A stretch of DNA of 6,833 nt, from positions 1-6,833 of IMG/VR virus record IMGVR_UViG_2645727743_000001; one strand, written 5' to 3'. The DNA is from a virus. Its lineage: Duplodnaviria; Heunggongvirae; Uroviricota; Caudoviricetes. The translations under genes and the position numbers were made by a program. Under the pieces are notes generated by a model, which was given only the letters and a program-made list of their open reading frames with translations, made no database searches and was not told where the DNA came from. Shown here in pieces: positions 1 to 6,833 of this stretch. Each line of letters begins with the position of its first letter. The stretch's first letter is position 1.

Positions 1-603
1 CAGAAGCAGAAAAAGCTTATTATGCTTCCATCGGAAACGATGATCTGGCAGCCTGAGTTCACAGATAAAACACTCTCCAGGAAACCCGGGGCGGTTCACG
101 GCGTAAAGATTTGTCATGTAATTATTTACGGTGACAGCCGATCTCCCCGGTTGCGTAACAATATAATTACTTTTGGGGATCTGGTATCCAGTAAGTAATT
201 CTTTACGTACCGCCAGCAATTTTTCTTTATTAATCGACGAGGCAAGATTTTTTTCACCGATTATGCTCAGAATATTTTTGATGACGGCACGGTACGTGTT
301 GAGTGACGTTTTTGCGACTTCCGTTTCTTTCAGTGCCAGAAATTTTTCAGCCAGTTCCTTTATGGTTAAATCTTGTCGGGCCTCACCAAATTTTTCCAGA
401 TTGTGTGAGGAGGGAAACTGTTTTGCATAGTCGAAAACACCAGTTTTTATTGCGTAACAAACAGAGGCGCGCAGCTCACCTGCAATGCGCCTGTTTTTTG
501 CCGTGTCAGGAACCCCAAGATTTTCCCTGATTCTTACACCTTTATAAACAAACCAGATACGTAATTTCCCTCCATGGTTTTCCACGCCTGTCGGATATTT
601 CAT
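1..603 (-). CDS. int: Tyrosine integrase, N-terminal portion only (start at 603, continues past the left edge of the window)
   Basis: Minus-strand frame is open from ATG (revcomp of 601-603) to position 1; it is absent from the ORF track because it has no stop in the window. Hand translation begins MKYPTGVENHGGKLRIWFVYKGVRIRENLGVPDTAKNRRIAGELRASVCYAIKTGVFDYAKQF..., which resembles the arm-binding N-terminus of lambdoid integrases (Rac IntR from memory starts MSKLPTGVEIRGRYIRIWF). It lies 35 nt downstream of xis on the same strand. Possible weak SD GAGAGAAG upstream. Residues encoded by about 1-105 look less integrase-like to me. Confidence 0.6.
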   Translation of the reverse strand, partial: MKYPTGVENHGGKLRIWFVYKGVRIRENLGVPDTAKNRRIAGELRASVCYAIKTGVFDYAKQFPSSHNLEKFGEARQDLTIKELAEKFLALKETEVAKTSLNTYRAVIKNILSIIGEKNLASSINKEKLLAVRKELLTGYQIPKSNYIVTQPGRSAVTVNNYMTNLYAVNRPGFPGECFICELRLPDHRFRWKHNKLFLLL

Positions 604-637
604 TTCAGCTTCTCTCGTTGGTTAGTGTTACTTTTGC

Positions 638-889
638 TCAGGTAAGATGACGTCTTGGTCTTGCAGGTGCCTGGCGCTCAATCCAGCGGTCAATTTCTTC
701 CAGGTTGTAAAAGCATGGGCTGTTATCCCATGGCATACAGTCATGGGCGACATGCCTATACTCCCTTCCTTCCATAAACGATTTTTCCCTGGCTTTTTTT
801 AGCGTTCCCTTTTTTATTCCTTTCAGTGCAATTAGCTGTTCTTCGGATACCCATTTACCGGGAGAGATAATCATGATTACTTCGCTCAT
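638..889 (-). CDS. xis: Excisionase (lambda Xis-like)
   Basis: 83-aa ORF MSEVIMIISPGKWVSEEQLIALKGIKKGTLKKAREKSFMEGREYRHVAHD... has the W...R...GREY pattern of lambda/HK022 Xis (lambda DGREYLFHESA, from memory) and sits immediately upstream of int on the same strand. The start is uncertain: ATG at 889 or the in-frame ATG at 874 (MIISPGKW...); both have weak SD. Confidence 0.6.
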   Translation of the reverse strand: MSEVIMIISPGKWVSEEQLIALKGIKKGTLKKAREKSFMEGREYRHVAHDCMPWDNSPCFYNLEEIDRWIERQAPARPRRHLT

Positions 890-958
890 CGCTTTTATCT
901 CTTACTTCAGATGAGCGCCGGTTGCAGAATACCAGTCACAACCGGCGGTGGTTGAACA

Positions 959-3439
959 TTAAAAATCAGCCTGACTCGGGATCAGTTTTTGTATCGTAGC
1001 TGTAACGTATTTTGCCTGGTGACGGGCGTCATCCAGTGCATTGTGGCGCACGCCTTCGAATGGAATAACGGTTCTGGCATCAAAGTCGATTGTTTTTCCC
1101 AGCTCAACGATTGTGCGTACATCGCGATCGTTGTGGTAGCGCCACGGGCAGGGGATGTCCAGACGTTCGTATGAGGTGCGCAAAATTGCGTTATCGAAAG
1201 TCGCACCATTACCCCATACCTGAACGAATTTTTCATCTGAGTATTCGTTGATGAACTCCCGAAACTGCGAAAGGGCATCCTTCAGTTTTACCTGGTCTGT
1301 TAAAATGGCAGCTCTGGCTTCACTGGACTGCTTCAGCCACCATTCGATGGTTCCACCGTCAGGAACAGCCCCTGTATTCATTGCGTCAGTCAGACTGATA
1401 ACGATATAAAATACTGGCCCGATTTCCCCTGTTTGTGGGTCGAAGAAAACCGCACCAATAACCACGATGGGCGCATTGGTGTTGGTTCCCATTGTTTCAA
1501 GGTCGATCATCAAGTGGTACCACACTCTGCTGGTGGATGTGATAACGTGATGACCGTTCACCGCAATTAAGGGATCTGCCGTCTCGCCAGTTTCATTATC
1601 GCTGGCGTGGTCCTGAGCGCTGCCAGCATTCTCCTTGTGTGGATGTTCAGCGCCTTCCATTTCCTCCGGATCATTTTCCTGAACTTCAACCCGATTCTCT
1701 TCATTGAATGTTTCCTGGTATGTTGCGTCGCCCATCACCGCGCCACAATCAGGGCAGTTGCCGCCGCCGGTCTGACCGCAGGCGGTGCAGATCTTTTCCG
1801 GTTCCTGTTGCACTACTGGTTCAGGTTGTTTCGTTTCTGGCTCATTTTGTAACGCATTTGGGCTGTTTTGTTCCGCTTTCTGGCCGTTCTGTTCCGTTTC
1901 TTGCTGGTTCTGGTTCACAGAATCGCGGGTTTCCATCCCCTTCACCCATTTCGGATCATTCGGATCGCTAATTCCTGCAACAAATTCACCACGTGATACT
2001 GCAAGCAGTTCATCGGCGTCAGGCTGGCTGATATTGGCTGCCTGCATAATGTTGTTTACTTCGTCAGCGGTAACTTTTACCGGCCCTGGTTGTGCGGTCG
2101 TGTCAGATGCACCAGTATTTTGTTGTGAACCTGAGTATGTACTGTTTTTGCGGACGAAATATTCTTCTTTCGTGATTTCAGTAGCCCCGGCAGCCAGTGC
2201 CTTATCCAGACCAGAAAGTTTGTTTGCGCGACCGTATTTTTCGCCATCCTTGTCGGTGAAGAGGAAGTAGAACGGCCCCTCACGCTCTACAGATGGTTCG
2301 ACTTCCACTTTGCATTCGGTTTTTTCGTTGTCCGGAATTGCCGTTTCCACTGCATCAGTTTCTGGTACTGGCGACGAGAGAGTATCAGTTGCGCTCTGAT
2401 TTGTTCCTTCATCTTCAAACACGCCCTTTGTAGTCAGGTATTCAGTAATGTATTTGTTCAGTGCCACAGGGTCTTTGTGAATGTCGATCGGACGTTCACG
2501 GACAAGGCCAAAAATAGTCTGGCGGTCGTAGCGAAGGGCATCAGGCTGTTTGCGCATTGATGCTGAGATACGCTTCCAGTCTTCGCGGTCGTTGTTGATA
2601 ACTTCATTTTTTGCCCAGCGATGGATGCTGCCGTCAATGTTTCCGGCATCAACATCACCAGGCCACAGAGCGTAGGCCAGTTCATCATCCAGTGTTTTCC
2701 ATGTCTGCTTATATTCGCGACGAATGACAGCAATGACAGGGGAGATATTTTCTGCTGAGTTTTCAGTGTGCTGTCGGTTGACTCTGGCGCGGGCGAGATC
2801 AACAGCAGACGTGTATTTTCCGGTTTCCTTGCGTTCACCTTCGCGACGTTTTTTCCAGATGCGCATCTCTGCCTGAATTTCGGGCCATTTAGCACCAGGC
2901 TTACATTTATGCTTAACCCACCCGATGGCATGCAACTTAAGCTCCGGATACATGGCGTTAACTTCTGGCATTTTCATCAACGCTTCAACGATATGGCCGT
3001 CGAATGTTGCCATGTCTTCCTGCAACAATTCCTGTGCACTAATCACCATATCAACGGTGATGTTTTCACATGTGTCGAACTTAACCATGACAGCGTTCTG
3101 TACTTCAGGGGCCAGCTTGTCAAAAGTGACGTTCATCGGATCGGATTCAGTCTCAACCGGGACAAAGGAAGCAGACTCCTCATCCCAGCGGTTTTCCTGC
3201 ATATATTCAGCATCCCAGGAATCGAGGGCAGGGCGGGGTATACCGGGTTTATCCTCGCAAACAAGAAATTTATAAGCGCAGTCCTGAGCAGCCGGATAAT
3301 GTTCCAGGAATTGCCAGTGAAATTTTGCGCGGGCGCGACGTTCATCACCGGCTTCAATGGCAGTGGCTACAGCGACGGCACCTTCTTCCTTTATTGCCTG
3401 TTCGTCCGGAATGGCGGCGCAAATAAAGACTTTACTCAT
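959..3439 (-). CDS. ydfE: YdfE-family prophage protein, full length, with C-terminal DEDDh 3'-5' exonuclease domain (often annotated exodeoxyribonuclease VIII in lambdoid prophages)
   Basis: 826-aa ORF with SD GAGGT 9 nt upstream of ATG at 3439. The N-terminus MSKVFICAAIPDE...AVAVATAIEAGDERRARAKFHWQFLEHYPAAQDCAYKF matches my recollection of K-12 YdfE. The C-terminus carries DEDDh motifs: MIDLETMG (Exo I), WGNGATFDNAIL (Exo II), HNALDDARHQAKY (Exo III). The central region has a CxxC-x7-CxxC zinc-ribbon-like motif (CTACGQTGGGNCPDCG), a Q/E/P-rich low-complexity linker and the RecE-like segment LLAVSRGEFVAGISDPNDPKWVKG. Confidence 0.85.
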   Translation of the reverse strand: MSKVFICAAIPDEQAIKEEGAVAVATAIEAGDERRARAKFHWQFLEHYPAAQDCAYKFLVCEDKPGIPRPALDSWDAEYMQENRWDEESASFVPVETESDPMNVTFDKLAPEVQNAVMVKFDTCENITVDMVISAQELLQEDMATFDGHIVEALMKMPEVNAMYPELKLHAIGWVKHKCKPGAKWPEIQAEMRIWKKRREGERKETGKYTSAVDLARARVNRQHTENSAENISPVIAVIRREYKQTWKTLDDELAYALWPGDVDAGNIDGSIHRWAKNEVINNDREDWKRISASMRKQPDALRYDRQTIFGLVRERPIDIHKDPVALNKYITEYLTTKGVFEDEGTNQSATDTLSSPVPETDAVETAIPDNEKTECKVEVEPSVEREGPFYFLFTDKDGEKYGRANKLSGLDKALAAGATEITKEEYFVRKNSTYSGSQQNTGASDTTAQPGPVKVTADEVNNIMQAANISQPDADELLAVSRGEFVAGISDPNDPKWVKGMETRDSVNQNQQETEQNGQKAEQNSPNALQNEPETKQPEPVVQQEPEKICTACGQTGGGNCPDCGAVMGDATYQETFNEENRVEVQENDPEEMEGAEHPHKENAGSAQDHASDNETGETADPLIAVNGHHVITSTSRVWYHLMIDLETMGTNTNAPIVVIGAVFFDPQTGEIGPVFYIVISLTDAMNTGAVPDGGTIEWWLKQSSEARAAILTDQVKLKDALSQFREFINEYSDEKFVQVWGNGATFDNAILRTSYERLDIPCPWRYHNDRDVRTIVELGKTIDFDARTVIPFEGVRHNALDDARHQAKYVTATIQKLIPSQADF

Positions 3440-3532
3440 GTTGTTTTAACCTCATTACAGATTTAAGGGTGAACAAATCCCTGCCATTGCTGGCATATAA
3501 AAATGAAACCGGATATTAATTACGGAACTGTT

Positions 3533-3724
3533 TTAAAGACCTGCCGGGATTTCGTTATTATCCATGTGAATAACTTTATCGACCGGATAGCAGTTACCGG
3601 GAATTTTTTGTTCTGCTGCGGCAGCCATGCATTCTTTCATTGAACCGTAAATGTCAATAACCATGTCAACAGGCTCGCCAGTATTAAGAAAAACAGTCAG
3701 AGTGAGGGCAATAGTAGTATTCAT
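3533..3724 (-). CDS. ydfD: YdfD-like small lysis protein (63 aa, N-terminal hydrophobic segment)
   Basis: The ORF track gives 3533..3778, but the supported start is the internal ATG at 3722-3724, preceded by SD AAGGA (8-nt spacer) and overlapping the dicB stop in an ATGA arrangement. Product MNTTIALTLTVFLNTGEPVDMVIDIYGSMKECMAAAAEQKIPGNCYPVDKVIHMDNNEIPAGL is 63 aa, the length and position of Qin YdfD. Confidence 0.75.
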   Translation of the reverse strand: MNTTIALTLTVFLNTGEPVDMVIDIYGSMKECMAAAAEQKIPGNCYPVDKVIHMDNNEIPAGL

Positions 3725-3909
3725 TGCCAGTATCCTTTTTGCATCGGGCGTAAACGTGCCAGCATTGAAAGAATGCATATTTTATTTAATAGCTCCCGTT
3801 CGTGTTTTCTCTTATTAATGGCATCTTCAGTAAATACAGGGTTACTGATTCTGACACCAATTTCAAAACAACCTTCAGACGTATTGACGTTTGGTAATAA
3901 CGTTTCCAT
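3721..3909 (-). CDS. dicB: Cell division inhibitor DicB (MinC-activating, 62 aa)
   Basis: The ORF track gives 3721..4005, but the internal ATG at 3907-3909 has SD GAGGA 7 nt upstream. Product METLLPNVNTSEGCFEIGVRISNPVFTEDAINKRKHERELLNKICILSMLARLRPMQKGYWQ is 62 aa and matches my memory of DicB. It lies about 185 bp downstream of the DicF-like terminator, as in the K-12 dicB operon. Confidence 0.8.
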   Translation of the reverse strand: METLLPNVNTSEGCFEIGVRISNPVFTEDAINKRKHERELLNKICILSMLARLRPMQKGYWQ

Positions 3910-4092
3910 TATCGCGTCCTCAACAATGAATTTTGTGATGCGGTGCCTGGTGCCTCCAGGTGACGTTAACCAGTTAATAATTAACGCCGGATACAGAGAA
4001 CCCACCCATAAGAACCAATACGGAAGTCAACTGGCCTTTTTAACTGTTCCGCGTGCGCTGAGCCGCATTCACCGCATCACAAAATGCACTTT

Positions 4093-4150
4093 AAAAGGTG
4101 CGGGTATCATGGGAAAAACAAAACGGATACCCGCCAAAAGGTAATCAACA
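4093..4150 (-). ncRNA. dicF: DicF-like sRNA, divergent variant (boundaries approximate; 3' end set by hairpin plus U4)
   Basis: Minus-strand sequence TGTTGATTACCTTTTGGCGGGTATCCGTTTTGTTTTTCCCATGATACCCGCACCTTTT. It contains a 9-bp perfect stem (GCGGGTATC at 4134..4126 pairing with GATACCCGC at 4108..4100) followed by ACC and TTTT (4096..4093). It shares TTTGGCGG..TATC..GTTTT with the K-12 DicF sequence as I recall it, and sits in the expected position between ydfC and dicB. The 5' end is not determinable from sequence. Confidence 0.4.
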
Positions 4151-4480
4151 TGGGTTGTTGCAGCGGGGTTGTCACTCAGGCGTATGGTCAACCTGACAAC
4201 CCGGTGGACATTTGCGAGGAACGGAGAACCCCCGCCATACTTACCGCCGCGCCATTTCGCGGAGTGCCACAACCGGAAGCGCACGGTCGACGAAAATTTA
4301 ACGACAGGCTATCTATGAACCAACCACCTCGCCGTGCGCTTTCGCGTTATGCCCTGACTTTTCAGGGATATATTCTTTCTGTAAACTGTCAGTGCCGGAT
4401 ACTCACCCGTGTCCGGCGCACGCACTCCACCTCACCCGTGGAGAACTCCTTAATTACCAACCCTCAGGAGGGTGAAATTT

Positions 4481-4672
4481 ATGACACAAGAAGAAAAAGT
4501 AATGTTTCTTATGCGCCTGGCTGTGGAAACCTTTAACGCCCATTGCCAGGTGCCCCTTTCACTATCTCACGTTATTTCTCTTGCTACCGAGCAAATGGGG
4601 GAAATTGACGCCATTTACAATACATTTGAAGCATTCCTGGATAAGAAGCTTATGGCAGAGAAGCGTCAATAA
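4481..4672 (+). CDS. Hypothetical 63-aa protein, convergent with and overlapping the 3' end of the 201-aa cargo gene
   Basis: ATG at 4481 is preceded by a strong SD AGGAGGG (4466-4472) with an 8-nt spacer; the ORF track begins at the upstream GTG at 4472. Product MTQEEKVMFLMRLAVETFNAHCQVPLSLSHVISLATEQMGEIDAIYNTFEAFLDKKLMAEKRQ is non-repetitive and reads as helical. No competing long minus-strand ORF spans 4285-4649. No family recognised. Confidence 0.45.
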   Translation: MTQEEKVMFLMRLAVETFNAHCQVPLSLSHVISLATEQMGEIDAIYNTFEAFLDKKLMAEKRQ

Positions 4673-5255
4673 TCCTCATTACCCATCGTAAATTTACAGA
4701 AGTGGGCTTGATGTTGTGTTTTTCAAGCTCGCTCTTCATGATTTCCAGCAGCTTTGAGCTGATAATAAACAAATCAGGTGCATCGTTATTATTTTTATCC
4801 GCATCGTCTTTTTTCGTTTTTAACTCTTGCGGTGAATGTTCGAAAGCAACTTGCAGGGTATTATTTTTAACATCCACAGAGCTTAAAATATGTGCATATG
4901 GATGTGCTATTGTGCGCCCCTGTAAATTTGCATCGTTTTCTAAATCTTTTGATTTCAACAGAACATCAGCAAGACTCTGAATCATGCAGAGATAATCAAA
5001 AACAGTTGCCGTTTCTGTTCTGATTGCTGAAATAACATGACCATTCAGGCAAACAGAAATTACCCGTTCATCAATATCGTTTTCCTGTTTTTGATTATCA
5101 GAACCATATAGCCCTGAAAAAGCATTGCGCACATTACGAACCATATTATCGATGGTTTCTTTTTTGGTGTATGCCGGGTCAATTTTCACCAGACTATCAC
5201 CGAGTGTCGTTGCAGCAATTATCTGGATTTCTTTTGGTAAATCTTTAAATTCCAT
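4650..5255 (-). CDS. Hypothetical 201-aa soluble protein, low-GC cargo gene inserted in the dicB operon
   Basis: Intact ORF with SD GAGG 6 nt upstream of ATG at 5255, starting 22 nt after the ydfC-like stop (operon-coupled). Sampled 60-bp lines give about 33-42% GC versus about 57% in the ydfE gene. No transmembrane segment or catalytic motif recognised; there is a D/K/N-rich linker (KKDDADKNNNDAPD). Confidence 0.75.
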   Translation of the reverse strand: MEFKDLPKEIQIIAATTLGDSLVKIDPAYTKKETIDNMVRNVRNAFSGLYGSDNQKQENDIDERVISVCLNGHVISAIRTETATVFDYLCMIQSLADVLLKSKDLENDANLQGRTIAHPYAHILSSVDVKNNTLQVAFEHSPQELKTKKDDADKNNNDAPDLFIISSKLLEIMKSELEKHNIKPTSVNLRWVMRIIDASLP

Positions 5256-5277
5256 TATTAGCCTCGTTGGTTAACCA

Positions 5278-5496
5278 TTAACGTGGGTATGTAATCATTC
5301 TGGCAATGCTTAATGCCGCTGCTTTTTCCAGATTGGTGATATCCTGCTCCAGAGCGGACAGATTTTCAGCCTGCTTAGCCCTGGCTTCATTGGCCCATTT
5401 CAGGTCCTGCGCAGCCTTAATTTTCTGGTGCATCCACTCATAAAGTTCATCATCGGTATAGTCTGGCGCGATGATGACGGGTTCTCGTTTCTGCAT
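5278..5496 (-). CDS. ydfC: YdfC-like small prophage protein (72 aa)
   Basis: ORF MQKREPVIIAPDYTDDELYEWMHQKIKAAQDLKWANEARAKQAENLSALEQDITNLEKAAALSIARMITYPR with SD GAGGA 6 nt upstream of ATG at 5496. Same length and operon position as Qin YdfC. Confidence 0.7.
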   Translation of the reverse strand: MQKREPVIIAPDYTDDELYEWMHQKIKAAQDLKWANEARAKQAENLSALEQDITNLEKAAALSIARMITYPR

Positions 5497-5525
5497 ACTG
5501 ATTCCTCGCGGTGCTGCTTCGCTTA

Positions 5526-5654
5526 TCAGCCGTTAGATTTTGCCGGGCTGGAAAGCGCCTGTTTAAATTCGCTGAAGCTGAGGGCTTCTTCGCCTTCGGC
5601 AAGGCCTTCGAAGTATTCTTCGTAAGCCTTTTCCATGATTGTGTCGAAATCCAT
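5526..5654 (-). CDS. ydfB: YdfB-like small protein (42 aa), not in the ORF track
   Basis: Hand translation of the minus strand gives MDFDTIMEKAYEEYFEGLAEGEEALSFSEFKQALSSPAKSNG. ATG at 5652-5654 lies 1 nt after the ydfA-like TGA stop (TGAtATG); stop TGA at 5526-5528. Length and position match Qin YdfB. An alternative start is the internal ATG at 5634-5636. Confidence 0.6.
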   Translation of the reverse strand: MDFDTIMEKAYEEYFEGLAEGEEALSFSEFKQALSSPAKSNG

Positions 5655-5655
5655 A

Positions 5656-5811
5656 TCACCCACCTGAATCTCTTTCCAGCCAGCGACGCGCTCCAGATTC
5701 GGTTTTAAACGTTTTGCTTTTGGTATACGTCATTGCGGTGAACGTGCCGTCCTGGTTTGGAAACACGCCGTACACCAGAGATTCGTTGTTGCCAAGATCG
5801 ATAGTATCCAT
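5656..5811 (-). CDS. ydfA: YdfA-like small protein (51 aa, DUF1391-type)
   Basis: The ORF track gives 5656..5865; the internal ATG at 5809-5811 has GAGG 5 nt upstream. Product MDTIDLGNNESLVYGVFPNQDGTFTAMTYTKSKTFKTESGARRWLERDSGG is 51 aa and matches my recollection of YdfA. Confidence 0.7.
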   Translation of the reverse strand: MDTIDLGNNESLVYGVFPNQDGTFTAMTYTKSKTFKTESGARRWLERDSGG

Positions 5812-5889
5812 GCTGACCTCATTTCCCCTTAACGCCGGGGTAGCGGAACTGTTTGCTGAGAACACCGTGCGGTGTCTTGATGGAAAGTA

Positions 5890-5907
5890 ATTTAGAATAA
5901 CCTAACA
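5890..5907. promoter_or_regulatory. Degenerate operator-like palindrome (minus-strand reading TGTTAGG-TTAT-TCTAAAT) in the dicB-operon promoter region
   Basis: Matches the TGTTAGA-N4-TCTAACA pattern at 11 of 14 arm positions. Centre lies 36 bp from the perfect site at 5926-5943, between the dicA stop and the ydfA start. Confidence 0.4.
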
Positions 5908-5925
5908 TGAGAGGCAAGTGTTTTT

Positions 5926-5943
5926 TGTTAGATTGATCTAACA
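5926..5943. promoter_or_regulatory. Operator palindrome TGTTAGA-TTGA-TCTAACA (candidate DicA site controlling the ydfABC-dicF-dicB operon)
   Basis: Perfect 7-bp inverted arms with a 4-bp spacer, read directly from the sequence. Located in the 168-bp gap between the dicA stop (5980) and the ydfA-like start (5811). Confidence 0.6.
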
Positions 5944-5979
5944 AAAAGGGTGGGCGCAACTAATCACTTGAAAAGAATG

Positions 5980-6387
5980 TTATTTTATTGATTTATTTTT
6001 ACGCGCTTTAAGCATTTCTTCGAAGAGTTTGTTGAAGTTTTCTACTCTTGCGCGCATTTCAGACAGCAAGGCTTCCTGCTCGGAAGATGGAAGAGCATCG
6101 AATAATTCGATCAATTCTTTGTGGTTGGGAGTTAGCTCTGTTTCCACATGAAGTTCTTGTGCAGGCACTGGTGCCTTGTCTTCGTCACCAAACATTAGCC
6201 ATGTAGGTGAGCACTTCAGAGCATCCGCTAAAGCAAACAATCGTTTTCCGACTGGCTGGGTTTCGTCTCTTTCCCATTGTGAAATTGTGACGTGAGCAAC
6301 TCCAGCGAGGCGCGCAGCTTCTCGTTGTGTTAAGCGTAATTCTTTTCGTCGCGCCAGAACTCGCTGGCCTAGGGTTCTTGTATCCAT
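5980..6387 (-). CDS. dicA: HTH XRE-family repressor DicA (135 aa), the CI-like immunity repressor
   Basis: ORF MDTRTLGQRVLARRKELRLTQREAARLAGVAHVTISQWERDETQPVGKRLFALADALKCSPTWLMFGDEDK...EMRARVENFNKLFEEMLKARKNKSIK. It has the same length as K-12 DicA and shares CSPTWxxFGDEDK and EMRARVxNFNKLFEE with it (from memory). Divergent from the dicC-like gene. Weak or absent SD. Confidence 0.85.
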   Translation of the reverse strand: MDTRTLGQRVLARRKELRLTQREAARLAGVAHVTISQWERDETQPVGKRLFALADALKCSPTWLMFGDEDKAPVPAQELHVETELTPNHKELIELFDALPSSEQEALLSEMRARVENFNKLFEEMLKARKNKSIK

Positions 6388-6405
6388 AGTTAGGTAATTC
6401 TAATT
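6388..6405. promoter_or_regulatory. Degenerate operator-like site AGTTAGG-TAAT-TCTAATT abutting the dicA start codon
   Basis: Matches the TGTTAGA-N4-TCTAACA pattern in arm spacing and most arm bases. Lies immediately upstream of the dicA ATG (6385-6387), so it is a candidate autoregulatory site. Confidence 0.35.
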
Positions 6406-6409
6406 TTTC

Positions 6410-6437
6410 TTGACTTAGGTATCCCGCGCACAATAAT
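6410..6437 (+). promoter_or_regulatory. Candidate sigma70 promoter for dicC (-35 TTGACT, 16-nt spacer, -10 AATAAT)
   Basis: TTGACT at 6410-6415 and AATAAT at 6432-6437, read directly. The -10 abuts or overlaps the perfect operator at 6437-6454. Confidence 0.5.
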
Positions 6438-6454
6438 GTTAGAAAAGTCTAACA
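6437..6454. promoter_or_regulatory. Operator palindrome TGTTAGA-AAAG-TCTAACA between the dicC promoter and the dicC SD
   Basis: Perfect 7-bp inverted arms with a 4-bp spacer, identical arms to the site at 5926-5943. Lies directly 5' of the dicC SD AGAGGGGG (6455-6462). Confidence 0.6.
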
Positions 6455-6467
6455 AGAGGGGGCTTTG

Positions 6468-6695
6468 ATGCTTAAAGTTGACGCAATTACTTTTTTTGGC
6501 AGCAAAACAAAGCTTGCCAATGCCGCAGGAGTGAGACTGGCAAGTGTTGCTGCTTGGGGGATACTGGTTCCTGAAGGTCGCGCGATGCGTCTACAGGAGG
6601 CATCTGGCGGGGAGCTTCAGTATGATCCCAAAGTTTATGACGAATATCGTAAGACGAAGCGGGCGGGGCGGTTGAACAATGAAAATCACTCCTGA
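6468..6695 (+). CDS. dicC: DicC / YdaS-like Cro-type regulator (75 aa from ATG at 6468)
   Basis: [78 protein letters not shown]. The ORF track starts at TTG 6465; I prefer the ATG at 6468, 5 nt after SD AGAGGGGG. Divergent from dicA; fits the YdaS/DicC family pattern GSxxKLAxAxGVxxxSVxxW. Confidence 0.8.
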
Positions 6696-6786
6696 ACAGG
6701 CTCGTGAGGCTCTGGATGCCTGGATATGTCGACCAGTAGACTGGCCCCCTGAATCTCCAGACAACCAGTATCACTTAAATAAGTGA
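6679..6786 (+). CDS. Short 35-aa ORF overlapping the dicC 3' end (possible remnant or small gene)
   Basis: ATG at 6679 to TGA at 6784-6786 gives [35 protein letters not shown]. It overlaps the dicC stop by 17 nt. No SD checked; could be a truncated ydfX/ydaT-like start. Confidence 0.2.
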
Positions 6787-6833
6787 TAGTCTTAATACTA
6801 GTTTTTAGACTAGTCATTGGAGAACAGATGATT

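Follow-up and report, generated by a model that had tools for sequence, protein, structure and literature searches.

The closest described relative of the switch analysed here is the immunity region of the cryptic prophage Qin of Escherichia coli K-12, in which the CI-like repressor DicA activates dicA itself and represses dicC and the dicB-operon promoter dicBp (PMC3441716, PMC10448788). The operators Oc, Om and Oa and those of dicBp were reported by Bejar et al. 1988, as cited in PMC3441716 and PMC10448788, and the K-12 literature, from inspection of the sequence, places three full operators on each side. Genetic tests and gel shifts show directly that Oc, TTGTTAGTCATAACTAACAA (TTGTTAG-N6-CTAACAA), binds DicA, and that a single A-to-C change in its TAA triplet abolishes this binding; Oc overlaps the dicC -10 element, and DicA bound there activates dicA (PMC3441716). 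Isolated Oa and Om were not bound by DicA in an in vivo operator assay (data not shown in PMC3441716). Deletion of dicA raises dicBp activity 22-fold, and the antirepressor Rem relieves repression (PMC10448788).

The Cro-like protein DicC uses the same region. In K-12 it represses dicA 48-84 fold, and its strongest ChIP-seq signal flanks dicA on both sides, the motif being TT(A/C/T)G...C(G/A/T)AA (PMC11430063), at a resolution that does not separate Oc from Oa or the two dicB-side sites, OB1 and OB2, from each other. For dicA, Reg-Seq detected no site of RNA polymerase, and the database it used holds a DicA site at dicBp with low evidence and unknown location (PMC7567609).

Beyond Qin, a second region for comparison is immC of Salmonella phage P22, whose operators are symmetric, 18 bp long and have the frame T3T4A5...T14A15A16 in common with the sites analysed here (PMC4267663, PMC5175364). 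The P22 repressor c2 leaves the central four base pairs of the operator (positions 8-11) uncontacted (PMC4267663). Short, non-cleavable repressors under antirepressor control have been described in the Gifsy (GfoR/GfhR), Rac (RacR-YdaS-YdaT) and CP-933P (PaaR2) prophages (PMC10448788, PMC11879457).

A prophage locus of the Qin type

The window, that is, the whole stretch of 6833 bp that was analysed, carries a dicA orthologue between a divergent dicC and a ydfA...dicB operon, as judged from open reading frames and synteny.

3721..5811, minus strand: repressed early-left operon (open reading frames, Pfam DUF1391 and DicB, alignment with K-12)
3721-3909, minus strand: dicB (Pfam PF05358, E=4e-37)
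about 4098-4140, minus strand: apparently decayed dicF (alignment with K-12; 9-nt deletion, 3' half diverged)
4650-5255, minus strand: open reading frame of 201 aa, extra with respect to K-12, between ydfC and the dicF homologue
5278-5496, minus strand: ydfC, open reading frame of the early-left operon
5526-5654, minus strand: ydfB, open reading frame of the early-left operon
5656-5811, minus strand: ydfA, open reading frame of the early-left operon
5980..6387, minus strand: dicA, CI-type repressor of 135 aa with a P22 c2-like helix-turn-helix (HTH) N-terminal domain (open reading frame, Pfam HTH_3)
6468..6695, plus strand: dicC, Cro-like protein of 75 aa (Pfam P22_Cro PF14549, 45.9 bits against a 30.2-bit cutoff)

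The gene order dicC <> dicA > ydfA ydfB ydfC ... dicB is that of K-12 Qin, the flanking DNA is 89-97% identical, and a close intact relative lies beside ydfJ, the insertion place of Qin. The locus differs from Qin in that a diverged allele replaces the 5' half of dicA, the dicA-dicC spacer and the 5' end of dicC, so that DicA is only 55% identical to K-12 DicA, whereas DicC is 86% identical. It is also interrupted by IS elements at both ends. The operon had been described as ydfABC-DicF-dicB, which needs amending: an intact DicF was not found (no Rfam match at E<=1), and ydfC is followed by the extra 201-aa frame. A search for structured RNA in 5780-6480 returned only Rfam noise (E>4), and no antirepressor gene is present in the window.

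Over residues 1-71, DicA is homologous to the N-terminal domain of P22 c2 (E=1.3e-18, about 45% identity) and, in a phmmer search of the PDB, matches the entries 1adr, 2r1j and 3jxb (E=1e-18 to 1e-17). Val33 and Gln37, whose roles have been described for P22 c2 (PMC5175364), are conserved between the two proteins. In tblastn, the match of DicA to c2 covers residues 1-80 only. No peptidase S24 (LexA-like) domain was found in DicA, for which Pfam gives HTH families only and nothing in residues 72-135.

Four probable operators bracket dicA

The region aligns in register with the annotated P22 immunity region. The five operator positions are as follows, none assigned to a strand.

5890..5907: OB2, weaker operator TGTTAGGTTATTCTAAAT in dicB sense, equivalent to P22 OL1
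5926..5943: OB1, strong operator TGTTAGATTGATCTAACA, equivalent to P22 OL2; 0 mismatches, position conserved
6388..6405: Oa, weak operator AATTAGAATTACCTAACT in dicA sense, equivalent to P22 OR3; 4 mismatches, TTAG-N6-CTAA core intact
6413..6430: Om position, equivalent to P22 OR2; half-site CTAAG only, fused to the dicC -35 element, 7/14 mismatches
6437..6454: Oc, strong operator TGTTAGAAAAGTCTAACA, equivalent to K-12 Oc and P22 OR1; 0 mismatches

The pattern TGTTAGANNNNTCTAACA is matched without mismatch at 5926-5943 and 6437-6454 and with three mismatches at 5890-5907. These three matches at <=3 mismatches compare with 0.21 expected in the 6833-bp window, and none of 200 shuffles reached three. 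At 6388-6405, 4 of the 14 specified bases of TGTTAGA-N4-TCTAACA are mismatched, and this is the sole additional match in the window at <=4 mismatches. The four copies around dicA that the original prediction described are thus borne out as non-random matches with 0, 0, 3 and 4 mismatches, although the copy at 6388-6405 is weaker than had been implied. The wording "perfect 18-bp palindromes" holds for the 7+7 arms of the two best sites but not for the whole, since their central 4 bp are asymmetric. At the 5926 site the perfect arms lengthen to 12 nt (5922-5933 and 5936-5947). OB2 has two mismatches when compared with TGTTAG-N6-CTAACA.

The shorter core TTAG-N6-CTAA occurs exactly four times in the 6833 bp, at the 5890, 5926, 6388 and 6437 sites (0.07 expected; 0/200 shuffles with four), and in a 49-kb stretch with an intact relative prophage it is again confined to these four places. 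A chance origin of the repeats is ruled out by the shuffles and by this exclusivity. The four inverted repeats are real and conserved, are probably binding sites of the prophage repressor switch, and correspond to the DicA/DicC operators that have already been described in Qin-type prophages; they are known biology.

A third full operator was sought on each side, and only half-sites were found: the Om position, which lies at -43 from the ATG, the same distance as P22 OR2, and a lone TTAG at 5960-5965. The latter is the only TTAG upstream of OB1; it is 22 bp away, out of register with P22 OL3, and missing in K-12. The locus therefore has two full sites per side, and not the three (OR1-3, OL1-3) of P22.

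Predicted promoter elements under the operators

6410..6437, plus strand: dicC promoter (PR equivalent), -35 TTGACT 6410-6415, -10 AATAAT 6432-6437 (promoter scan, 10/12 consensus)
5889..5917, minus strand: dicB-operon promoter dicBp (PL equivalent), -35 TTGCCT 5917-5912, 17-nt spacer, -10 TAAATT 5894-5889 (read from the sequence)
6391..6402, minus strand: putative dicA promoter core (PRM equivalent), -10 TAGAAT 6402-6397, predicted start 6391 (+/-1)

In each case an operator overlaps the promoter elements, as in P22; dicCp was recognized by scan, and dicBp and the putative dicA core by alignment with P22. Oc, read as TTGTTAG-N6-CTAACA(A) and aligned with K-12 Oc, covers the last base of the dicC -10 element and the predicted dicC start site at about 6444. 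The dicC promoter of K-12, mapped by 5'RACE, has the same arrangement (PMC3441716).

On the dicB side, dicBp scored under the threshold of a simple promoter scan; its alignment with the annotated PL of P22 (-35 TTGACC, -10 TAAATT, 5' end 7 nt downstream) runs base for base, and homologous loci retain it. Its start is predicted at about 5882 (+/-2). OB2 fills the dicBp spacer and overlaps the -10 element, and the centre of OB1 lies about 52.5 bp upstream of the predicted start.

Oa holds the putative dicA -10 element and would overlap the 5' end of the dicA message. It does not overlap the dicA start codon, as had been proposed, but abuts it, ending 1 nt before the ATG (6387-6385, minus strand). 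The predicted dicA leader is 3-4 nt long and lacks a Shine-Dalgarno sequence. TAG(A/C)AT is kept 8-9 nt upstream of the dicA ATG in all homologues, and the annotated P22 PRM transcript has its 5' end 4 nt before the c2 ATG, the aligned sequences reading CTTAACTATG versus CCTAACTATG.

Arms are conserved and centres vary

All four sites occur at the same positions in the K-12 Qin, E. ruysiae, E. albertii, Citrobacter and Buttiauxella loci, with pair spacings of 49-51 bp on the dicC/dicA side and 35-36 bp on the dicB side (49 and 36 bp here, centre to centre). K-12 keeps the positions even though the 5' half of dicA and the dicA-dicC spacer have diverged past the reach of blastn. The Oc arms are identical there (TTGTTAG/CTAACA), the relation of Oc to the dicC promoter is the same, and OB1 is imperfect (TGTTAG...CATACA) where it is a perfect palindrome here. 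TGTTAG-N6-CTAACA also stands at the Oc position of the Citrobacter and Buttiauxella loci. Oa is conserved as far as Pantoea and Erwinia (Campylobacter matches from the genome scan, which cover residues 82-115 only, were left out).

To look within one repressor allele, we compared 81 loci whose repressor is >=99% identical (79 viral contigs plus the loci L004 and L005). In the operator arms 2 of 48 columns vary, against 10 of 24 columns of the centres and 45 of 176 columns of the other intergenic DNA; Fisher tests on this arm, centre and intergenic variation gave p = 1.5e-4 and 5.7e-4, values that are indicative only because the haplotypes are related by descent. Operator variation falls at positions 7-12, around the base pairs 8-11 that P22 c2 likewise leaves uncontacted. 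At Oc the arms are nearly invariant and the centre varies (19 haplotypes), and at OB1 the arms are invariant and the centre is highly variable (33 haplotypes). Two-fold symmetric 18-bp sites with conserved arms and a variable centre are what P22-type operators look like. Oa is unchanged in 79/79 viral contigs. From E. coli to Buttiauxella, the arm of the weak sites that departs from the pattern is degenerate at the same outer bases.

These data bear on whether the repeats could form RNA or DNA hairpins, such as a terminator downstream of dicA, or could be bound by a host factor, for example the TetR-family protein YjdC, instead of DicA and DicC. The 5926 site is indeed a palindrome with 12-bp arms 36 bp past the dicA stop, and YjdC has been reported on the dicC operator region (PMC9283627). 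Against this, K-12 breaks the symmetry of the 5926 site and retains its position, all but one of the four sites are in DNA that is non-transcribed or belongs to a promoter, and Oc is assigned to DicA by the genetic and gel-shift work in K-12 (PMC3441716). We consider this explanation most improbable. A terminator or hairpin role of 5922-5947 in particular was rejected: the element is not terminator-like, has no U-run on either strand and is asymmetric in K-12.

Are the weak sites operators?

OB2 and Oa each have one good arm and another that is degenerate at the outer bases, and each sits on a -10 element, so that their conservation is partly confounded. This raises the possibility that only the two perfect palindromes are operators, the degenerate copies binding nothing and being kept as promoter parts (the dicBp -10; the dicA -10 and message 5' end), with their likeness to the operator a relic of ancestral P22-like OL1 and OR3. 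Both copies overlap -10 hexamers (TAAATT 5894-5889, TAGAAT 6402-6397), Oa and Om are not bound by DicA in K-12 in vivo (PMC3441716), and the clearly decayed OR2 equivalent indicates that operator loss does occur in this lineage. The arms outside the -10 elements are nevertheless conserved across species as well, namely TGTTAG, within the spacer of dicBp, and CTAAC, which separates the dicA -10 from the ATG; this is something that a promoter role alone would not lead one to expect. Both arms of the weak sites are invariant among 33 haplotypes (OB2) and 19 haplotypes (Oa), DicC binds the Oa region and strongly represses dicA (PMC11430063), and the K-12 binding test used isolated sites, to which any help from a strong neighbour was absent. 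We regard this reading of the weak sites as unlikely.

A probable P22-type switch shared by DicA and DicC

Our preferred reading, to which we give a probability of roughly 0.85, is that the four repeats serve as operators in a P22-type immunity switch used by both CI-like DicA and Cro-like DicC. DicA dimers would bind the 18-bp two-fold symmetric sites through the c2-like helix-turn-helix domain, reading the outer arms TGTTAG / CTAACA and leaving the central 4-6 bp uncontacted. Judged from the conserved arms, this 55%-identical DicA allele probably binds the operators. The strong sites Oc and OB1 would let DicA act at a low cellular level. At Oc, on the dicC -10 element and start site, it would block the rightward PR-like promoter; OB1 would place it just upstream of the -35 element of the leftward PL-like ydfABC...dicB promoter, and occupancy of OB2, over the dicBp spacer and -10, would exclude RNA polymerase. 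DicA at Oc would also raise dicA transcription, either by direct contact with polymerase or by removing competition from the overlapping strong dicC promoter. Oa, over the weak and nearly leaderless putative dicA promoter, would be the counterpart of OR3 at which dicA is shut off, mainly by DicC and, at high concentration, perhaps also by DicA.

The comparative data and the K-12 work (PMC3441716, PMC10448788) support the earlier proposal that the promoter of the dicB operon and the dicA/dicC switch are both under the control of a DicA repressor. That a single repressor does so is contradicted by K-12 DicC, which also binds both sides of dicA and represses dicA (PMC11430063). Autoregulation exists in K-12, as had been anticipated, but through Oc it is positive (PMC3441716). 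Since K-12 DicA does not bind isolated Oa or Om, a role for DicA at the degenerate copy next to the dicA start is conjectural.

The resemblance to P22 immC extends to the P22_Cro family of DicC, the identical PL -10 (TAAATT), the aligned CT(T/A)AACT-ATG junction at the repressor start and a -35 hexamer lying between the two left-hand sites. The 36 bp between the centres of the dicB-side pair, correctly given in the original prediction, match the 35 bp of P22 OL2-OL1 and do not by themselves point to a special cooperative design. The two regions also differ. The half-site is ATTTAAG in P22 and TGTTAG here, the OR2 position has decayed and no in-register OL3 equivalent is found, and the PL operon carries gene 24 (N) in P22 and ydfABC/dicB here. 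DicA is short (135 aa), with an unrelated C-terminal part lacking the S24 self-cleavage domain, and for this reason RecA-driven induction and c2-type pairwise cooperativity are not expected.

As in lambda, the repressor and cro genes are divergent, the operators are common to both proteins and bracket the repressor gene, and the repressor, while shutting PR and PL, also activates the weak, leaderless-type promoter of its own gene. Neither the operators nor the C-terminal domain show a detectable sequence relationship to those of lambda, where each side has three full sites spaced 23-24 bp apart and CI acts cooperatively as tetramers and octamers; here each side has two, at 49 and 36 bp. At 36 bp (3.4 turns) and 49 bp (4.7 turns), dimers would lie on different faces of the helix, and simple side-by-side cooperativity is therefore not obvious.

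Could a DicA oligomer instead loop the operator pairs, about 0.5 kb apart around dicA, in the manner of lambda OL-OR? The weak sites would then be filled only in the loop, giving sharp dicBp repression and negative autoregulation at Oa. Each side of dicA has one strong and one weak site, and the weak sites are 16/18 identical as inverted copies (498 bp apart). The strong-to-strong distance (Oc-OB1) of 511 bp is identical in K-12 despite 45% protein divergence, and the failure of isolated Oa to bind DicA (PMC3441716) is as expected of a site that needs help. However, such contacts are made by the C-terminal domain of c2 and CI, which DicA lacks, DicA is only assumed to be a dimer, the distance is mostly set by gene length, and at 517-518 bp the Citrobacter and Buttiauxella loci have a different helical phase. 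We find looping of this kind improbable.

A more elaborate version, which we offer as a speculation that we doubt ourselves, sees the locus as a stripped-down P22 immC minus its cooperative middle operator. Selection would keep the weak sites weak, and these would then work only with help over a distance: a DicA oligomer spanning the 0.5-kb dicA gene would connect the strong sites and fill OB2 and Oa. DicC would flip the switch via Oa. If bridging were true, a repressor with some 20 copies in each cell could tightly silence dicB and limit its own synthesis.

The sites matter in that they control the toxic cell-division inhibitor DicB and a switch of the lysis-lysogeny type, in a prophage family carried by a large fraction of E. 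coli genomes. Their existence, location and general role have been in the K-12 literature since 1988, refined in 2012-2024. Our analysis adds an allele with good support and a precise assignment of each site to its P22 counterpart; the mechanism is of no new kind. Exact operators also aid the reading of cross-regulation between prophages: two DicA alleles that are 55% identical share the same operator arms, and therefore co-resident Qin-like repressors may act on each other's promoters.

The Gifsy, Rac and CP-933P systems likewise have a small CI analogue without a peptidase and a cro-like gene followed by a ydaT-like gene, but their repressors belong to other families and their operator sequences differ. 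In the present locus, too, a ydaT-like (CII-like) gene follows dicC, and around the ydaT start (6672-6689) there is a repeat resembling the YdaT box.

Results

Gene content of the window

The window contains the immunity region of a Qin-like lambdoid prophage from E. coli, together with its early-left operon. Its closest match, strain E300082 (99.3% identity across window positions 97-6736), carries a seemingly complete prophage adjoining ydfJ. Here the left end (1-96) is the end of an IS3-family (IS1203-like) element beside an integrase remnant, and the right end (6737-6833) is an IS2 end that interrupts the ydaT-like gene after about 20 codons; because IS elements lie at both ends, this prophage copy is a truncated remnant. 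The features are:

638-889, minus strand, excisionase gene
959-3439, minus strand, exonuclease gene
3533-3778, minus strand, DUF1482 gene
3721-3909, minus strand, dicB
4650-5255, minus strand, 201-aa ORF unmatched in Pfam, separating ydfC from the remnant of dicF
5278-5811, minus strand, ydfC, ydfB and ydfA
5980-6387, minus strand, dicA
6468-6695, plus strand, dicC
plus strand, start only, ydaT-like gene

The 201-aa ORF is missing in Qin, the cryptic prophage of K-12, and is annotated in the closest genome as a partial hypothetical pseudogene.

Four operators flank dicA

The original prediction of four operator copies around dicA proved real. Against TGTTAGA-N4-TCTAACA, the strong sites OB1 (5926, dicB-operon side) and Oc (6437, dicC side) have no mismatch, while the weak sites OB2 (5890) and Oa (6388) have three and four. 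Across the window there are exactly four occurrences of the core TTAG-N6-CTAA, all at these positions (0.07 expected), a count reached by no shuffle; in 49 kb of an intact relative the core is again confined to these four places. The sites of each pair are spaced 36 bp (OB2-OB1) and 49 bp (Oa-Oc). The copy at 6388, thought to overlap the dicA start codon, only adjoins the ATG.

The weak operators, compared as inverted copies (5889-5906 and 6389-6406), are 16/18 identical, a closer match than either gives with the strong sites. TAGAAT is present in both, with an ATG 8-9 nt on; the one at 5907 opens just a 9-codon frame.

All four sites are present in K-12 Qin (Oc TGTTAGTCATAACTAACA, Oa ATTTAGCATTAGCTAACT, OB1 TGTTAGCTATAGCATACA, OB2 TGTTAGTCATGGCTAATC), with positions and arms kept despite allele divergence: the flanks are 89-97% identical, while the dicA 5' half, the dicA-dicC spacer and the dicC 5' end have diverged, leaving DicA 55% and DicC 86% identical. 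Since DicA alleles this different keep identical arms, the repressors of co-resident Qin-like prophages may cross-regulate. The four sites also recur in E. ruysiae, E. albertii, two Citrobacter species and Buttiauxella (DicA identity 73-100%; spacings 49-51 bp and 35-36 bp), and TTAG...CTAA-type sites occupy the Oa and OB2 positions in loci from Enterobacter, Pantoea and Erwinia (65-68% identical). The weakness is conserved in its form as well, with degenerate outer bases in the left arm at Oa and in the right arm at OB2.

Variation within one repressor allele was compared across 81 loci with repressor identity of at least 99% (79 viral contigs and two other loci), comprising 19 upstream and 33 downstream haplotypes. 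Operator arms vary at 2/48 columns, both singletons, against 10/24 in the central six positions (Fisher p = 1.5e-4) and 45/176 in the remaining intergenic DNA (p = 5.7e-4); as the haplotypes share descent, these p-values are merely indicative. Variation in Oc and OB1 is concentrated at positions 7-12. P22 c2, which has an N-terminal domain homologous to that of DicA, contacts positions 2-7 and 12-17 of its 18-bp site and likewise leaves the central four (8-11) uncontacted (PMC4267663).

Published K-12 work points to DicA and DicC

These are the DicA/DicC operators already known from K-12, and our finding is a rediscovery. There, multicopy plasmids bearing the 20-bp Oc (TTGTTAGTCATAACTAACAA) titrate DicA; Oc also confers DicA-dependent repression on a reporter, and a single A-to-C change in the TAA triplet inactivates it. 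The dicC promoter has been mapped by 5'RACE, and its -10 is overlapped by Oc; DicA bound at this operator represses dicC and is required for dicA transcription (PMC3441716). The known autoregulation is positive and exerted via Oc, a point that the original prediction missed. Sequence-predicted K-12 Oa and Om (the P22 OR2 equivalent) did not bind DicA when assayed alone (PMC3441716). Deletion of dicA raises dicBp, the dicB-operon promoter, 22-fold, and the Rem antirepressor lifts its repression; the same authors, with reference to Bejar et al. 1988, describe operators flanking dicA on both sides (PMC10448788). A Reg-Seq study recovered DicA's site at dicC and noted that the one at dicB was low-evidence and of unknown location; for dicA itself, it found no polymerase site (PMC7567609).

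The overall interpretation first offered was broadly right, except that a single repressor does not account for the sites: the strongest DicC ChIP-seq signal flanks dicA on either side, with the palindromic motif TT(A/C/T)G...C(G/A/T)AA and dicA repression of 48-84 fold (PMC11430063). DicC is a member of the P22_Cro family. The first 71 residues of DicA match the solved N-terminal domain of P22 c2 (E=1.3e-18), conserving Val33 and Gln37, which in P22 c2 read the TTAA half-site (PMC5175364), with Asn32 replaced by His. Residues 72-135 have no Pfam match, and Pfam finds no S24 peptidase domain in DicA.

The layout maps site for site onto P22

We aligned annotated P22 immC with the window. Upstream of the c2 ATG, OR1, OR2 and OR3 start at distances of 66, 43 and 18 nt; upstream of the dicA ATG, the corresponding distances are 67 nt for Oc, 43 nt for the Om position and 18 nt for Oa. 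OR3, like Oa, ends in CT(T/A)AACT immediately 5' of the ATG, and the AGTCAA common to both regions is, on the opposite strand, the -35 of PR and of the dicC promoter. In P22, the PRM transcript is annotated as beginning 4 nt 5' of the ATG, so the dicA start is predicted at 6391, without a Shine-Dalgarno sequence, from a putative promoter whose -10 TAGAAT (6402-6397) falls within Oa.

On the other side, OB2, like OL1, occupies the spacer and -10 (TAAATT) of a PL-type promoter, and OB1 lies 36 bp upstream of it as OL2 lies 35 bp upstream of OL1, with the -35 hexamer between. The 36-bp spacing had been measured correctly and its match to OL2-OL1 missed. Since the PL 5' end falls 7 nt past the -10, the dicB-operon start is predicted near 5882. 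Both operator sets share the frame T3T4A5...T14A15A16, with P22 ATTTAAG and DicA TGTTAG(A) differing at positions 1, 2, 6 and 7. At the Om position a mere half-site is left (7/14 mismatches), and the alignment shows no OL3 equivalent in register.

From these data we infer operator binding by the window's DicA allele, the start sites and the weak-site roles. Oc, centred on the dicC start, would block the PR-like promoter and OB2 the PL-like one, with strong OB1, directly upstream of the -35, a likely entry or anchor site. Oa, over a weak, nearly leaderless dicA promoter, would be an OR3-like off-switch, with DicC its most plausible user. Because the core promoters of dicA and dicC overlap, their predicted starts about 54 bp apart, blocking dicCp may by itself favour dicA transcription.

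Other features of the early-left operon

The original prediction named DicF in the operon; the dicF homologue (4098-4140, minus strand) is decayed: relative to K-12 it lacks 9 nt in its 5' part and its 3' hairpin has diverged, and Rfam gives no DicF match in the window even at E<=1. Downstream, dicB is intact. Immediately upstream of dicB and adjoining the dicF remnant, 3890-4096 (minus strand) matches the Rfam sRNA family STnc100, but its 32.6 bits (E=6e-5) fall short of the gathering score of 47.

The ydfA 5' leader (5812-5885, minus strand) is nearly invariant across the 33 haplotypes and kept out to Pantoea and Erwinia. Its small hairpin (5825-5840, CCCC-GGCGTTAA-GGGG), with compensatory changes in 2/4 pairs, corresponds in position to P22 nutL (boxA/boxB), but an N-like gene is not evident; an antitermination element of the nut or put kind might be present here.

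At 6672-6689 (plus strand), the inverted repeat TTGAAC-AATGAA-AATCAC, whose spacer holds the ydaT-like ATG (6679), resembles TTGATT-N6-AATCAA, the YdaT-box published for Rac and CP-933P (PMC11879457).
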